A stretch of 64,000 nt of DNA, taken from an uncultured Candidatus Saccharibacteria bacterium. GTDB lineage: Bacteria > Patescibacteriota > Saccharimonadia > Saccharimonadales > 2-12-FULL-41-12. Below are positions 26,743 to 30,362 of this stretch, one piece after another (positions within the stretch are counted from its first letter, which is position 1; every line of letters begins with the position of its first letter). The notes beneath the pieces were generated by a model. The model was given only the letters and a program-made list of their open reading frames with translations, ran no database searches and was not told where the DNA came from. The translations under genes were made by a program, and so were the position numbers. Location of the stretch: contig CAYOLI010000001.1 in NCBI GenBank assembly GCA_964404795.1, positions 17,059-81,058 on the forward strand, given 5' to 3'.

Positions 26743-29472
26743 CTACAAAATAGGTGGCAAAGTGGATACACTTTGAGATTCGCCAGATGACGCAGTAGAT
26801 TTTGGTTTTACTGCTGGTCGTGCCAAGTACATTTCAGGACTAAAGTTAAATACTTCGGCAGATTTTGGCCTTTTCGATGCATCGTATGGATACTCACCTG
26901 CTACTCCGTTGCTAATCGTGTTGCCTGTTCTATAGAAATGAACCTTTTTCGATACAAATTGGCCATTTATCTGTAACTGGCTTCGACAATTGTCCCAAAA
27001 AGCCGACCCAGTAGGGGCCGAACCACCTGGAGCACAAGTATAAATCTCCCCCCTACTAGAGTCATTTTTTGGCTGAGCGATATACCTACCATCCAGCTGG
27101 GTTACGCCTGGGTCGATATAAATGTTACCTTTTACAACTAGGTTAAAGTATGGAATGTCTTCTATGCTAAACCAGCCAGAACCAGCATTAGCATAAGCAA
27201 TACTGCCAGTAATATAGACATCTCCGTCCACAAAAAGTGAGTGATGGCCACTAAATGTTCCGCCGCTAAGGGTCAACTTGCCTCCGACTGGGGTAATCAC
27301 GGTCTGCCCATTGTTTCTAGCAGATAGTTCTGCTATGCCAATGCTGCTTGCAGTACTCTCTTGTCGTCTGCTATCGTTCTTGTCAAATTGGTCGTCTACG
27401 AAGTAGTTAGGCGCACAATCTACACTCGAGTAGTTTTTGGCTGTCAATCCGTTTGGAGTAAGTGGTGTTCCAGAATTTTTCAAGAATATCGACTTAAAGC
27501 CACTTATATCACCGTTTGCAAGTGCTGCTAGCTGCGTACCAGAACCAGCATTTTTTGCGTATGTTTTTATGGAACCACCGCTACCACAAGTTTCACCTAA
27601 TCCACCGCCACCAACCGAAACGTCGTTAGTAAATACGCTTACGTATGGCATGTTGGTAATAATATTGCACCATTGCTGTCTTTGCGACGCTCTTCCTCCC
27701 GCGACCTTACCAGATGGACCAACCCAGCCATCAGAATAATTAAACGGTTCTAAAACGGCACATATTTTATCACCAGCATTCCACCCTAGCGACCGAACAC
27801 CATCATTGACGTCAAAACTATTATTCAGATCAATAGTGCCTGGTGAACCAGACTTCACATCCGTCGAACCCACTTGTGTGCCATTTCTAAATAACTTAAG
27901 TGTTGCATTTACAACCGGTCCAGCAGCTGTTCCTTTGCCTGTCAATGTGGCTGATCCTTTAATATGCCACGGGTTTTCATAATCTGTTGCATTATTGTTG
28001 TCGAAGAAACCTATGCCTCCAGTTATATCGGTCCTAAAGTCCTGGTATGTGTCTACAATAAAAGAACACCGTTGGCCAATGGGTAAACCATTATACTGGG
28101 GTTCAAGCCATACTGTCCTCCTGCTAATATCATTCATTGAATACATGCTCATATAGAATTGCCCATTTGCACCAGGACTAAGTTCTCCAGTTGTATGTTC
28201 CGTCCCAGCCATACCATCTCCGTCTACCACTTTGACCGTAATAGGCATCGGGCGCGCTCCTACTCCAGTGCTTGTATTCTCAACATACCCAACAATATCG
28301 AAGCGAGAATTAGCATTAACAAAAGCACTGTCTGCATCTGACGGTTTCGAAAGCGCATATATTTTTATGCCAGAACAAACCGCCTGATCTTTGTCCTTTA
28401 TGTCCCCGCTTCGACAACCCGATATGGGAGTATATCCTGTTGAGTATTCCCAATGTTTCTTACCATCTTTATCTGTCACGTGCTGCCAATTTTCAATCTC
28501 TACAATATATCCATCTGCAATAGGATCGGGTAAGCCAAAGCTAATATTTTGTTTTATATCTTCGGTATTACTAAAGTTCTGCTGGAGTTGAAAGTTCTGG
28601 AAATTAGCCCATGAGCCCATATCTTTATATTTTGTACCTTCAACAGCCCCTTTAGCACCACTGCGTGGCACGTTATTGGGATAAACGGTGAACCTATAGT
28701 TAGAATGAGCGGTCAACCTATGCCTGTATGTATTACAATCCGCTTTTTCAGGATCTGGGTCTTTAGGTTTTTCTGGTTCTTTACCCTCTACCCACGTGAA
28801 CTGAACGTATTTAGTAGTCCCATTTGGAGGGGCGACAATTGCGGTTGTCCCGCCGTCTGCGTAACTTTCACCATCGTCCAGTCCGCCAACAATTTTAACT
28901 TCCCAATGAGAGCCAGGATAATTATGAGCCCCACTAGGCATACCAATGGGTGTTATTTTATACCTCTGGTACAGGTTTACACTTGGATCACTTTTTTTAA
29001 GAATCTCTCTTTTTGACACATCACAATCAAGCGCCCAGTTACTCAGACCATTGATGGTATCAGTTGAGGAACCTCTAGTACCTAAAACAACGTTAGTGGA
29101 GTCACCCATCGCACCACTTTTATTATAAAAGTCACAACCTAGTCCACTCTGCTTAAATATCCTGCTTGCATGATGAGATTCCGAGTCAGGGCGATTTTTA
29201 GCATCTAAGTTCATCAAGCCGCCAGGCGGTGTCGTGGTATACCCTTCTGTCGCTACTTGTATTTTGGTGTTTGGATTACTACTATTTTCATTCCTAGATT
29301 CTTCGCCATACGGTTTATACAAAACGTCGACTATCAAACCTGCATAATCATGTGGGTTGTTGGATTCGACCCCACAACTAGCACTAGCGCTCTCGCTGTT
29401 AAAGGTTAATAACCCAAATATACTAACCGTCAATACTGATGAAAATAGAACTAGCGATCGTCTAGATTTCAT
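26743..29472 (-). CDS. large secreted protein (909 aa), function unknown; Gly/Asn/Thr-rich, putative beta-rich surface protein
   Basis: N-terminal signal peptide MKSRRSLVLFSSVLTVSIFGLLTFNSESASA; repetitive G-x-G/VxV segments suggestive of beta-solenoid; no catalytic motif recognised. Confidence 0.45.
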   Translation of the reverse strand: MKSRRSLVLFSSVLTVSIFGLLTFNSESASASCGVESNNPHDYAGLIVDVLYKPYGEESRNENSSNPNTKIQVATEGYTTTPPGGLMNLDAKNRPDSESHHASRIFKQSGLGCDFYNKSGAMGDSTNVVLGTRGSSTDTINGLSNWALDCDVSKREILKKSDPSVNLYQRYKITPIGMPSGAHNYPGSHWEVKIVGGLDDGESYADGGTTAIVAPPNGTTKYVQFTWVEGKEPEKPKDPDPEKADCNTYRHRLTAHSNYRFTVYPNNVPRSGAKGAVEGTKYKDMGSWANFQNFQLQQNFSNTEDIKQNISFGLPDPIADGYIVEIENWQHVTDKDGKKHWEYSTGYTPISGCRSGDIKDKDQAVCSGIKIYALSKPSDADSAFVNANSRFDIVGYVENTSTGVGARPMPITVKVVDGDGMAGTEHTTGELSPGANGQFYMSMYSMNDISRRTVWLEPQYNGLPIGQRCSFIVDTYQDFRTDITGGIGFFDNNNATDYENPWHIKGSATLTGKGTAAGPVVNATLKLFRNGTQVGSTDVKSGSPGTIDLNNSFDVNDGVRSLGWNAGDKICAVLEPFNYSDGWVGPSGKVAGGRASQRQQWCNIITNMPYVSVFTNDVSVGGGGLGETCGSGGSIKTYAKNAGSGTQLAALANGDISGFKSIFLKNSGTPLTPNGLTAKNYSSVDCAPNYFVDDQFDKNDSRRQESTASSIGIAELSARNNGQTVITPVGGKLTLSGGTFSGHHSLFVDGDVYITGSIAYANAGSGWFSIEDIPYFNLVVKGNIYIDPGVTQLDGRYIAQPKNDSSRGEIYTCAPGGSAPTGSAFWDNCRSQLQINGQFVSKKVHFYRTGNTISNGVAGEYPYDASKRPKSAEVFNFSPEMYLARPAVKPKSTASSGESQSVSTLPPIL

Positions 29473-30362
29473 TTGTTGTATACCTGCACTTTTAGTTTTG
29501 CTTTTGCCTCGTTAATTTTAGCATAAACACCACTATTTGAAGCATCCGTCTGGTTATAAATAAAATAGTAGAAAATATCTACTGGTTCGGCACCGGGGCT
29601 TGGACTGGCTGTGCCAACCCTTACTTCGGATACACCTGGCTTTAGGGGATTTTGTACGTAGCTACGAATATCATCATAATATAGTGAGATTATGCTCTGA
29701 GGATCGAATTTAGAACTATGGTTGTACGCACTACCCCCAAGCTTTTCATCGGCTTTTATTTGGTTTAGAGCTTCGTCGGACGTAATATTGCCCTTACTTA
29801 GCGCTTCATTAAAATAATCGGCTTGTTCTTTTGCGTACTTTCTATCTGCATCGATAAGCGATCTATCGCCTAACCCAACTGGTTTATAGCGTGGTCCATA
29901 CTGAATATGCTGGCCAAAATAAAAATCATAACTATAACCACTTGGCAGTGATTGATTAGCCATATTTTCAATAGCTGTTTTTTTAGCAGCTAGTGCAAAA
30001 TAGTCCGGGTATTTATTAAAAAAATCTTCTGCCCACCCCTGGGTTATTAGAGTTTCTTTGGCCCTTTTTAGGTCTTGATCGGTGGGTGATAAACCAATAT
30101 TTTGCGCAGCTACTATAACTTTCGTGTCTTCTATGACTGTATCTAAGGATTGTTTTTCGTCATATTTTTGAACCTCTCTATAAAAGTTTAAATACTTATC
30201 AACGTCTTTACGAGTATATTTTTTGTCGTCAATACTAAACAATACATCTGAGCGACCACTTTTTTTATTAGACTGATTTAACTTCACACCATAAGCAACA
30301 ACAACTAGTACAATCAGCAAAAATATTGCACCCAGTATCTTTTTGTTAAGCTTAAGCTCCAT
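29469..30362 (-). CDS. membrane-anchored extracytoplasmic protein, unknown function; translationally coupled to the 909-aa gene
   Basis: N-terminal signal-anchor (ILGAIFLLIVLVVVAYG); ATGA 4-nt overlap with downstream ORF. Confidence 0.4.
   Translation of the reverse strand: MELKLNKKILGAIFLLIVLVVVAYGVKLNQSNKKSGRSDVLFSIDDKKYTRKDVDKYLNFYREVQKYDEKQSLDTVIEDTKVIVAAQNIGLSPTDQDLKRAKETLITQGWAEDFFNKYPDYFALAAKKTAIENMANQSLPSGYSYDFYFGQHIQYGPRYKPVGLGDRSLIDADRKYAKEQADYFNEALSKGNITSDEALNQIKADEKLGGSAYNHSSKFDPQSIISLYYDDIRSYVQNPLKPGVSEVRVGTASPSPGAEPVDIFYYFIYNQTDASNSGVYAKINEAKAKLKVQVYNK

Follow-up and report, generated by a model that had tools for sequence, protein, structure and literature searches.

We identified a two-gene cassette that stands immediately before pilM, the first gene of a type IV pilus (T4P) locus, and that is conserved yet entirely unannotated in most of the mainly environmental Saccharibacteria sampled. 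The second gene of the cassette encodes a 909-aa exported protein and the first a 297-aa membrane-anchored partner. Our best reading, which we hold with about even confidence, is that the pair supplies a pilus-linked envelope or adhesin-type protein together with a dedicated anchored chaperone or tether. For Saccharibacteria living as epibionts, type IV pili are indispensable (PMC10633639, PMC11623550, PMC9894109), and published locus maps begin at pilM. Within the window, the whole 64,000-nucleotide stretch analysed here, the features that carry the argument are as follows.

19216-26658, minus strand: run of pilM, pilN, pilO, a 78-aa gene, pilB, pilT, pilC and a pilin gene, with pilM first
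25618..26658, minus strand: pilM (Pfam PilM_2, E 1.9e-41)
26659..26742, minus strand: intergenic gap of 84 nt with the conserved pilM promoter element GGTTATGCTATACT (sequence and motif comparison)
26696-26704, minus strand: extended -10 element of pilM, TGCTATACT, ending 37 nt before the pilM ATG
26743..29472, minus strand: gene for the 909-aa exported family protein (ATG start; ORF confirmed)
26746-26763, minus strand: TLPPIL free C-terminus, near-invariant in the family (family conservation)
26746..26796, minus strand: flexible C-terminal tail, residues 893-909 (pLDDT <50)
26797..27675, minus strand: family-defining C-terminal beta-rich domain, residues ~600-892 (conservation and domain model)
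27676..28743, minus strand: three tandem Ig-like beta-sandwich domains, residues ~244-599 (AlphaFold2 secondary structure and pLDDT)
28774..29379, minus strand: N-terminal domain, residues 32-233, with motifs CGVxSxNxHDYAG and NWALDCDxS (AlphaFold2 and N-domain HMM)
29380..29472, minus strand: Sec signal peptide, residues 1-31, predicted cleavage after ASA (sequence, AlphaFold2 helix and AxA-type sites in homologues)
29469..29472, minus strand: ATGA overlap of the partner stop codon and the start codon of the 909-aa gene (read from the sequence)
29469..30362, minus strand: 297-aa partner gene (ATG start; ORF confirmed)
30282..30338, minus strand: single hydrophobic transmembrane anchor of the partner, residues ~9-27 (read from the sequence)
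30373..30381, minus strand: extended -10 promoter-like element of the pair, TGATATAAT, ending 10 nt before the ATG of the 297-aa gene

An earlier, sequence-only reading had described the two genes as a translationally coupled pair, and the 4 nt that they share, with 84 nt then separating them from pilM, bear this out. The same 4-nt overlap recurs at the targeted loci L001, L003, L005-L007, L011, L012, L014 and L016; at the remaining targeted loci where the junction was read, partner and large gene overlap by 1 nt or are separated by a gap of 4–26 nt. Among metagenome loci with an upstream ORF, this ORF overlaps the large gene or ends ≤5 nt from its start in 33 of 41. Since homologues with the same arrangement occur in many other genomes, both genes are real and not chance ORFs. 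The two form a self-contained cassette with its own promoter.

The 909-aa protein is exported, beta-rich and outside any recognisable known family, as had been proposed, with no match in Pfam (E ≤ 0.1), NCBIfam, PHROG or PDB sequences. Its N-terminus consists of MKSRR, a hydrophobic core and an ASA/SC cleavage site, and the AlphaFold2 model places a helix at residues 5–24 followed by a low-confidence linker. The predicted mature protein (~94 kDa, pI 5.7, 13 Cys) has the richness in Gly, Asn and Thr reported earlier (G 11.5, N 7.2, T 7.1%) and is also high in S (9.7%) and C (1.5%), set against means of G 6.9, S 7.1, N 4.7, T 5.3 and C 0.6% for the 21 other window proteins. In the full model (pLDDT 85), an N-terminal domain is followed by a Pro/Lys/Glu-rich linker (residues 234–243), three Ig-like beta-sandwiches and a C-terminal beta-rich domain. 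Foldseek, proposed earlier as a check on such a model, matched the whole protein to Ig-like arrays only (for example the MG domains of complement C3 and the legs of integrins; E ~1e-6, TM ≤0.21, probability 0.97–1.0). Modelled alone, the C-terminal domain (pLDDT 84.9, pTM 0.86) probably adopts a beta-solenoid fold, and a structure search found no significant neighbour for it among PDB or viral structures; its invariant positions include G643, V790, C813, C829, G837, R848 and E873. The C-terminus is [ST]LPP[IV]L or a one-residue variant in ~140 of 150 diverse family members and at every related locus examined. Nothing hydrophobic or charged follows LPPIL-COOH, and the protein has no LPXTG, SLH or other known wall anchor.

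Homologues of the 909-aa protein fall into 4628 clusters at 50% identity (E ≤ 1e-3), or 2562 at E ≤ 1e-30. Named members come from Saccharibacteria, Saccharimonadales or Patescibacteria, almost all from Saccharibacteria, and each carries the label 'hypothetical' or 'exported protein of unknown function'; the related loci belong to Candidatus Saccharibacteria or Saccharimonadales, the sole exception being L010 (a weak Verrucomicrobiae match). Together with the synteny between the window and the T4P1 locus of Southlakia epibionticum, this agrees with the CPR setting suggested before. Family-wide conservation is confined to the C-terminal 300–500 residues. At L005 and L007, where PilM is 86% and PilT 91–93% identical, the large protein can be aligned only over its C-terminal 410–500 residues, at 44–47% identity. 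Judged from these alignments, close relatives exchange the N-terminal half, a pattern also seen in adhesins and proteins of host interaction. Beyond its thousands of clusters, the family is marked by a signature domain lacking any significant structural neighbour, by its near-invariant free C-terminal peptide and by the anchored, client-specific candidate chaperone that accompanies it.

This partner has an N-terminal signal anchor, an extracytoplasmic SurA_N/PpiD-like region and a conserved GYxYDFYFGQHIQYGP motif. PpiD, SurA and PrsA are extracytoplasmic chaperones with a SurA_N domain, and PpiD is held at SecYEG by an N-terminal helix; the partner shares the PpiD topology of an N-terminal anchor followed by an extracytoplasmic domain. 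Unlike these chaperones, however, the window partner falls below the Pfam threshold for SurA_N_3 (PF13624; residues 7–100, 17.8 bits, E 0.003, cutoff 27.2), with an alignment that begins at the anchor helix, and one of five close partner homologues matches the model. The threshold is reached among fused relatives of the large protein: six (P0041, P0070, P0089, P0119, P0205 and P0234) combine an N-terminal transmembrane anchor with SurA_N_3. The fused N-terminal module of P0041 scores 28.8 bits against the cutoff of 27.2, and its gene sits at the equivalent place upstream of pilM (L013). With hhalign, the partner family aligned to the fused N-terminal modules over 171 collinear columns (probability 94.3%, E 9.6e-8), and the fused relatives have exactly one computed transmembrane segment, at the N-terminus. 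The partner also differs from PpiD, SurA and PrsA in having no parvulin PPIase domain (no Rotamase-family match in Pfam) and in its apparent dedication to one client; a separate housekeeping PpiD/PrsA-like protein, encoded at 10110–11156 in the window, has Rotamase-family matches.

At other loci, about three-quarters of the partners are unrelated: short anchored proteins of a TPR-like type. An HMM of the N-terminal domain of the large protein matched 14 genes. Each of the 14 is accompanied by a SurA_N-like partner, and the 32 genes whose partner is short gave no match. By this comparison, partner type co-varies with the type of N-terminal domain; both cassette types also occur in tandem within one genome (L018). 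Coupling, fusion and co-variation together argue that the partner is dedicated to a single client. We consider it very likely that the partner and the large protein work together, and we lean towards a SurA_N-like role for the partner, as chaperone or tether. Given its link to the N-terminal domain and the N-terminal anchoring of the fusions, the variable end may sit close to the membrane, a placement that suits a classical distal adhesive head poorly.

The sequence-only reading had also suggested that the pair might open the pilus transcription unit, a view that a terminator and promoter in the 84-nt gap would speak against. We found no terminator in the gap (fold z-score 0.65) but did find a conserved extended -10 promoter element. 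Its longer form, GCTTATGSTATAMT, precedes pilM at 14 of 14 targeted loci whose gap was read and at 50–52 of 66 metagenome loci. This conservation implies that pilM has its own promoter, so the pilus operon need not begin with the pair, and with a promoter-like element before both pilM and the pair the suggestion, as worded, is not supported. Transcription of the pair may continue into pilM but does not have to. For the pair itself, the 10-nt spacing between TGATATAAT and the ATG points to a leaderless or near-leaderless mRNA.

Conservation of the pair beside pil loci in relatives was confirmed. A family gene immediately precedes pilM, in the same orientation, at 13 of 17 targeted loci and at 66 of 74 evaluable metagenome loci (~89%), the latter found with patterns drawn solely from the C-terminal domain of the large protein; the sampled loci are not phylogenetically independent and come mainly from environmental Saccharibacteria. 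Neighbours further upstream vary by locus (6PGD/PRTase, RadC/lipase or ychF/M14 peptidase), which marks the cassette-pilM junction as the part that is kept. Some genomes carry two tandem cassettes, and at the tandem loci with a readable downstream region (L018, L025, L068 and L082) the last copy still abuts pilM. At the T4P1 locus of S. epibionticum, whose type IV pili are functional and essential, ychF lies directly against pilM, with no such cassette gene at the pilM-proximal position examined. Barring a copy at some other place in the S. epibionticum genome, the cassette would therefore not belong to the universal core of the machine. On balance we slightly favour a functional tie between the cassette and T4P-1. 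If the cassette does work with the pilus, it would be a new accessory component of a much-studied machine in a secretin-less lineage, and its swapped N-terminal domains and LPP[IV]L tail would offer a handle on host recognition.

The same position could also arise if the product acted independently of the pilus, as a surface protein, an S-layer-like protein or an adhesin, and its gene stood next to pilM through inherited synteny in a small, gene-dense genome. We regard this as unlikely. The junction persists across lineages whose PilM proteins are only 63–86% identical and whose upstream neighbours differ, and the abutment of the last tandem copy on pilM also speaks against mere synteny; in addition, the conserved Cys are predicted to be disulfide-bonded, which is atypical of S-layer proteins. 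Independent promoters for the cassette and pilM, the multi-copy cassettes and the S. epibionticum arrangement would all fit such a protein, as would the loci at which the cassette lies away from pilM (targeted L001, L011, L012 and L016, and 8 of the 74 evaluable metagenome loci). Even with no link to the pilus, this would still be among the largest uncharacterised surface-protein families of the phylum.

In the reading that we prefer, a pilus-linked envelope protein with an anchored helper, a near-leaderless bicistronic mRNA would allow both proteins to be made together via ATGA coupling. The partner would enter the membrane with its N-terminus inside, as a bitopic protein with its SurA_N/PpiD-like part extracytoplasmic, and the 909-aa chain would leave via Sec and lose its signal peptide after Ala31. 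The N-terminal CG...HDYAG domain would come out first and may be captured by the partner for folding or retention, the three Ig-like domains would serve as the stalk of an elongated, disulfide-rich envelope protein, and the C-terminal beta-rich domain with its free [ST]LPP[IV]L tail may dock onto a conserved structure. Genomic linkage suggests that this target is most likely the T4P-1 machinery or filament, or the surrounding wall. Its place before the pilus genes in most sampled Saccharibacteria makes the cassette a good candidate for a pilus-linked part, in the envelope or in adhesion, that has so far gone unrecognised.

Of the earlier proposal of an adhesin or surface effector tied to the pilus, the linkage to pilM stood, whereas no recognisable adhesive domain was found in the 909-aa protein with Pfam or NCBIfam; that the cassette acts as an adhesin is a tentative suggestion, to which we give somewhat less than even weight. 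In fibrillar adhesins of monoderm bacteria, Ig-like repeats form a stalk that bears an adhesive domain (Monzon et al., 2022, PMC9210967). The 909-aa protein resembles these adhesins in being exported and multi-domain, with a predicted tandem Ig-like stalk and fast-changing terminal domains, but differs in the lack of a recognised adhesive domain or LPXTG/SLH anchor, in that the conserved end of the family is the C-terminal domain with its free LPP[IV]L, and in that its variable end is tied to a membrane partner. Tapirins of Caldicellulosiruptor, a monoderm bacterium, are beta-helix surface adhesins encoded beside the T4P locus, and the likeness here extends to a predicted beta-solenoid-type surface protein, genomic T4P linkage and a monoderm cell. 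The tapirin C-terminal beta-helix itself (4WA0, 6N2B) was rejected as a match (E 0.85–3.9, probability ≤0.03, TM 0.13–0.15), nor are the sequences similar.

A structural role in the CPR type IV pilus machine, as a component that spans the envelope, would also account for a gene that immediately adjoins pilMNO in ~89% of loci. Such a component might form a collar or conduit of non-secretin type across wall and S-layer, or extend the PilMNO alignment complex outwards, with the anchored partner as a PilP-like adaptor and the LPP[IV]L tail used for oligomerisation or docking. PilQ is missing from CPR genomes, and the organism has no outer membrane, unlike the setting of PilP-PilQ (PMC6744442). The layout of a conserved C-terminal and a variable N-terminal region parallels that of secretins, a conserved, disordered tail is what docking peptides typically look like, the anchored partner gene precedes the large gene, and the fused forms are membrane-tethered. 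Like PilP-PilQ, the cassette sets a small anchored-protein gene and a large envelope-protein gene contiguous with pilMNO; unlike PilP-PilQ, it lies upstream rather than downstream of pilMNO and has no secretin domain. Secretins (PilQ/GspD, PF00263) form a 12–15-mer channel, and neither a Pfam or NCBIfam match to them nor a secretin-like fold among the structural matches was found. Tandem paralogues and N-terminal swapping suggest a diversifying family more than an invariable piece of a machine, the promoters of the cassette and pilM are separate, and S. epibionticum has functional, essential pili with no pilM-proximal gene. We consider a structural part quite unlikely. Its fuller version, in which the family supplies the outer component that the Patescibacterial T4P is missing, is less likely again: a non-secretin, membrane-tethered protein would use its conserved C-terminal domain and free LPP[IV]L tail to assemble on the machine or around it and to guide the filament through the wall and S-layer of monoderm cells, with exchangeable N-terminal cassettes and partners tuning assembly.

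Least probable is a non-pilin adhesin like PilY1/PilC of Pseudomonas and Neisseria (PF05567), its C-terminal region loaded on the minor-pilin tip complex and its variable N-terminus binding the host: these too are large Sec-exported non-pilins of T4P loci with variable N-terminal and conserved C-terminal regions, and weak, non-significant structural neighbours of our protein include the T4P-associated beta-solenoid proteins tapirin and ComZ, but the C-terminal seven-bladed beta-propeller (Neisseria_PilC domain) is absent from Pfam results and AlphaFold2 models, the C-terminal fold being a different, beta-rich one, and no PilY1 or PilC chain was among the Foldseek matches listed for the full protein or its C-terminal domain. 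The 909-aa gene also lies outside the minor-pilin operon, directly upstream of pilM and ~9–13 kb from the minor pilin genes at the far end of the locus (13260-17460). A 563-aa pseudopilin and a 352-aa PilX_N protein already provide the locus with large pilin-type adhesin candidates. Its coupled, membrane-anchored partner co-varies with the N-terminal domain, and that some relatives are fused, N-terminally tethered single-pass membrane proteins argues against a protein riding on the pilus tip, which these could not reach without cleavage.

Across the window, the extended -10 pattern TGNTATAMT has eight matches, seven of them 9–37 nt upstream of a same-strand ATG start. Such -10 boxes about 10 nt before start codons are widespread, which implies leaderless mRNAs and makes them, like GCTTATGSTATAMT, useful for annotation.

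The sequence-only reading had proposed that a 297-aa anchored protein and a 909-aa exported protein, encoded next to pilM, may be the first genes of the pilus transcription unit, with the large protein a candidate adhesin or surface effector tied to the pilus. We found both open reading frames, their four-nucleotide overlap and the 84-nt gap to pilM as that reading gave them:

29469..30362, minus strand, gene for the anchored partner, 297 aa (open reading frame)
29469-29472, minus strand, ATGA shared by the two genes (sequence)
26743..29472, minus strand, gene for the large protein, 909 aa (open reading frame)
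26659-26742, minus strand, 84-nt gap between the large gene and pilM (sequence)
25618..26658, minus strand, pilM (Pfam PilM_2, E 1.9e-41)

The cassette pairs a protein with one hydrophobic, N-terminal anchor with a large exported multi-domain protein. Downstream of pilM, the same strand carries pilN (24881-25621), a pilO-like gene (24159-24881), a gene for a 78-aa protein, pilB, pilT, pilC and a pilin gene, then an IS200-like transposase gene, pilD and four pilin-like genes. The window's gene order is collinear with the T4P1 type IV pilus locus of Southlakia epibionticum ML1, which runs from ychF and pilM through the pilins to xerC, ndk, a PH-domain gene and a PpiC gene (SEML1_0103-0121; PMC10633639 supplementary tables). 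In S. epibionticum, ychF directly adjoins pilM (PMC10633639 supplementary tables); in the window about 10 kb separates ychF (36520-37599) from pilM, and this interval holds genes for an M14 peptidase, a 307-aa protein, an MprF-like protein and a 258-aa protein as well as the cassette.

Two further features of the pilus locus were apparent. The major pilin gene (19216-19659) is separated from pilD (17503-18360) by the IS200/IS605-type Y1 transposase gene (18397-19017, minus strand; Pfam Y1_Tnp, E 6.6e-9), which looks like an insertion, as a related locus (L002) has pilD directly 3' of its pilin gene. The 78-aa single-pass membrane protein (23926-24162, minus strand), between the pilO-like gene and pilB, has no family assignment. 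It is kept in place in all eight related loci covering the region (34-74% identity), and its positional counterpart in S. epibionticum, SEML1_0107, is essential.

A classical Sec signal peptide, predicted to be cut after ASA31, opens the large protein. We rejected a lipoprotein reading in favour of a signal peptidase I substrate, since homologues carry D or G at position -1 and their cleavage sites are of the AxA type. Its mature form is richer in Gly, Ser, Asn, Thr and Cys than 21 other window proteins, which bears out the Gly/Asn/Thr bias first noticed, and the absence of a recognizable motif also held: neither cassette protein reached a Pfam or NCBIfam threshold, and in Pfam, NCBIfam and PHROG scans of the 909-, 297- and 258-aa proteins only the latter two gave matches, all sub-threshold. 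Sequence-profile searches of the PDB likewise returned no match for the large protein, and tblastn against 50,697 phage records was negative. A word-indexed search found only six homologues (32-39% identity). An exhaustive profile search, by contrast with it, recovered 4628 clusters (50% identity) at E <= 1e-3 and 2562 at E <= 1e-30, a very large family centred on Saccharibacteria and without a match to any described family. Its named members are called 'hypothetical' or 'exported protein of unknown function' (Saccharibacteria, Saccharimonadales, Patescibacteria), with one Dormibacteraeota-labelled record among them; the window holds a single member. What the members have in common is the C-terminal 300-500 residues, and the N-terminal regions vary by subfamily.

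A full-length AlphaFold2 model of the large protein, built from 90 sequences (mean pLDDT 85.1), gave the following layout:

residues 1-31, signal peptide
residues 32-233, beta-rich N-terminal domain
residues 234-243, Pro/Lys/Glu-rich linker
residues about 244-599, three beta-sandwich domains
residues about 600-892, C-terminal domain with many short strands
residues 893-909, disordered tail

Foldseek searches of the PDB with the full model returned only generic Ig-like arrays (E about 1e-6, TM 0.21 or less), among them the MG domains of complement C3 and the legs of integrins, which identifies the middle of the protein as an Ig-like stalk. The C-terminal domain was confidently modelled by itself (pLDDT 84.9, pTM 0.86), and neither the PDB (best E 0.85) nor BFVD (best E 0.11) held a significant structural match to it; its weak PDB matches include ice-binding beta-solenoids, tapirin and ComZ, which suggests that it is probably a beta-solenoid of a type without a counterpart among solved structures. 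The only beta-helix protein in the structure-annotation table of S. epibionticum, SEML1_0645, belongs to a different family (Pfam Beta_helix).

The C-terminal domain and the peptide that ends it are the signature of the family. Among the residues that do not vary in alignments of 90-150 diverse members are C813 and C829, which are likely to form a disulfide, and G643, V790, G837, R848, E873 and the last residue, L909. The free C-terminus reads [ST]LPP[IV]L, or a one-residue variant, in about 140 of 150 diverse members, and the same end is found in every related locus examined. No hydrophobic segment follows LPPIL, where the protein ends, so a sortase- or exosortase-type sorting signal was rejected. 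The tail is predicted to be disordered; the simplest reading of so flexible and yet conserved an end is that it would dock onto a partner that is itself conserved.

We then asked how the cassette is placed in related genomes, using targeted loci reached via homologous proteins or a GTDB scan, and a metagenome scan with two peptide patterns, both taken only from the C-terminal domain, which returned 80 loci. The related loci come from Candidatus Saccharibacteria or Saccharimonadales assemblies; a Verrucomicrobiae contig (L010) was set aside because its match was weak and spanned 57 residues. A family member lies directly 5' of pilM on the same strand in 13 targeted loci (L002-L009, L013-L015, L017, L018), and pilM is not directly 3' in L001, L011, L012 and L016. 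Among metagenome loci with enough downstream sequence, pilM is the next gene in 66 of 74, at a median gap of about 100 nt; as the loci share ancestry, the counts do not stand for independent events. The placement against pilM is strongly conserved, as the proposed tie to pil loci predicted, and since the genes further 5' differ by lineage, the junction itself is the conserved feature. Four metagenome loci carry two tandem family genes, and the last copy adjoins pilM in all three that are readable downstream. Tandem cassettes occur in L016 (4501-7364 and 9550-12364) and L018 (455-4325 and 4432-7925), and also in L025, L032, L068 and L082. Sequence change is much faster in the large protein than in the pilus machine: in L005 and L007, PilM is 86% and PilT 91-93% identical, and only the C-terminal 410-500 residues of the large protein align, at 44-47%.

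Partner homologues of 300-355 aa lie directly 5' of the large gene in L001-L004, L011, L012, L014 and L018. The window's own partner resembles SurA_N_3 weakly (E 0.003, 17.8 bits; cutoff 27.2), and a PDB profile search returned only ATP synthase subunit b, which we dismissed as noise from the transmembrane helix and the helix that follows it. The family includes at least six fusions, 1022-1369 aa long (P0041, P0070, P0089, P0119, P0205, P0234), with an N-terminal anchor, their only transmembrane segment, and SurA_N_3 before the family body. P0041 passes the Pfam SurA_N_3 threshold (NCBI name 'SurA N-terminal domain-containing protein'), and its gene lies directly 5' of pilM in L013, as the cassette does. 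Eight further long members start with a like anchor, most of them also with an I-x-I/V-G-D-x-x-I-T motif. In a profile-profile comparison, the stand-alone partner family matched the fused N-terminal modules (94.3% probability, E 9.6e-8), collinearly from the anchor on. By the Rosetta-stone argument, the existence of fused forms speaks for joint action of the partner and the large protein.

Co-variation links the two proteins as well. An HMM of the N-terminal domain (window residues 30-235), run on the family genes of related loci, matched 14 genes, every one preceded by a SurA_N-like partner, and none of the 32 with a short partner (110-230 aa, anchored, partly TPR-like); the L090 gene has a long partner and a diverged N-terminal domain below the HMM threshold. 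Tandem cassettes can differ in partner type, SurA_N-like or short TPR-like, and L018 carries both in one genome. The type of partner thus goes with the N-terminal domain, whereas the C-terminal region is common to all. As the first part of the large protein out of the translocon, the N-terminal domain would meet a partner that may serve it as a PpiD-like chaperone or a membrane tether. Tight coupling of the two genes is general: in the metagenome loci, 33 of 41 same-strand upstream ORFs overlap the family gene or end within 5 nt of its start (15 of the 33 with an ATGA-type 4-nt overlap), and 34 of 41 encode an N-terminal hydrophobic segment. The opposite end of the pilus locus encodes a full PpiD/PrsA-like protein (10110-11156, minus strand) with SurA_N_3 and parvulin PPIase domains, so the genome has a general extracytoplasmic foldase besides the cassette-specific partner; SEML1_0121, at a like place in S. 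epibionticum, is essential.

The gap before pilM contains no terminator-like hairpin that we could find and folds no better than shuffled sequence (z = 0.65). It does contain an extended -10 motif:

26696-26704, TGCTATACT, in the gap 5' of pilM
30373-30381, TGATATAAT, ending 10 nt before the partner ATG
267-275, 1350-1358, 12302-12310, 31295-31303 and 47748-47756, the others of seven TGNTATAMT sites

Every one of the 14 targeted loci whose gap was read has a longer form, (G)CTTATG(C/G)TATA(A/C)T, between its family gene and pilM, as do 50-52 of 66 metagenome loci, with the end of the motif 8-12 nt from the start codon in about two thirds of the motif-bearing metagenome loci. TGNTATAMT is not above chance in the window (8 occurrences, 6.5 expected). 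Seven of the eight, however, lie 9-37 nt, mostly about 10 nt, 5' of a same-strand ATG start (the eighth is 5' of thrS), which argues that TGNTATAMT is a working promoter type in this organism. The short distance to the ATG suggests that many of its genes are probably transcribed as leaderless or near-leaderless mRNAs. The pair and pilM would then each have a promoter, that of pilM being deeply conserved. Of a terminator and promoter dividing the pair from the pilus genes, only the promoter motif is present. The proposed place of the pair at the head of the pilus operon is then not required, although read-through into pilM is possible. The motif at 12302-12310 implies a different start for ndk: the ATG about 24 nt 3' of it (MERTLIIAKPD...) in place of the TTG at 12337.

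A literature search found no description of the cassette or of a gene 5' of pilM. Like PilY1/PilC and the tapirins, the large protein would be a non-pilin surface protein encoded in a type IV pilus locus, and the cassette also resembles fibrillar adhesins and PpiD/PrsA-type chaperones with their clients. It nonetheless fails the defining tests of each known family: the large protein lacks the PilC propeller, a tapirin-like fold and any known adhesive domain or anchor of fibrillar adhesins, the partner lacks a PPIase domain and the cassette has no secretin domain. We describe it as a putative pilus-locus-associated surface protein with a dedicated helper. The large protein presumably stays in the envelope, where its conserved C-terminal region and tail would bind some conserved structure, of which T4P-1 or what surrounds it is the likeliest, and the exchangeable N-terminal half would reflect contact with a variable outside partner.

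Alternatively, the large protein could belong to the pilus machine itself, as a structural component in the envelope or as a conduit, and there is a modest chance that the cassette is a non-secretin outer component of the CPR pilus; the absence of such a gene by pilM in S. epibionticum, the tandem paralogues and the domain swapping weaken a core-machine role. A PilY1-like tip adhesin fits less easily with membrane-tethered fused forms, a gene beside pilMNO rather than among the minor pilins, and a locus that already has large pilin-type adhesin candidates. A surface protein without relation to the pilus sits less well with a pilM junction that persists across divergent lineages.

Several other genes of the window drew attention. 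A 563-aa protein (14999-16690, minus strand) is a candidate minor pilin bearing an adhesin: its N-terminus is of pseudopilin type (KG followed by DTIAEVLISVAVLSL, Glu at +5), and its C-terminal region is large, rich in Cys and without a Pfam match. At the corresponding position S. epibionticum has a far smaller protein, SEML1_0114 (210 aa). An exported M14 zinc carboxypeptidase with Big_5 domains is encoded next to cassettes in the window (34547-36496, plus strand), L014 (2578-4458) and L016 (7379-9388, between the two cassettes), and is missing from most other loci. Given the family's invariant free C-terminus, processing of that end by the peptidase is conceivable; a cell-wall role is equally likely. 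The anchored 258-aa (30424-31200, minus strand) and 307-aa (33548-34471, minus strand) proteins have a repetitive, low-complexity N-terminal region in common (jackhmmer E 2.9e-56). We rejected the 258-aa gene as a third cassette member, because L002 alone has a homologue of its Cys-rich C-terminal domain, encoded there on the other strand, besides the partial paralogue at 33548-34471. Divergent from the cassette region, a gene (31314-33536, plus strand) encodes an MprF-like protein with an N-terminal membrane region, LPG_synthase_C and DUF998, a sign that this small genome provides for the synthesis of aminoacyl-phospholipids.
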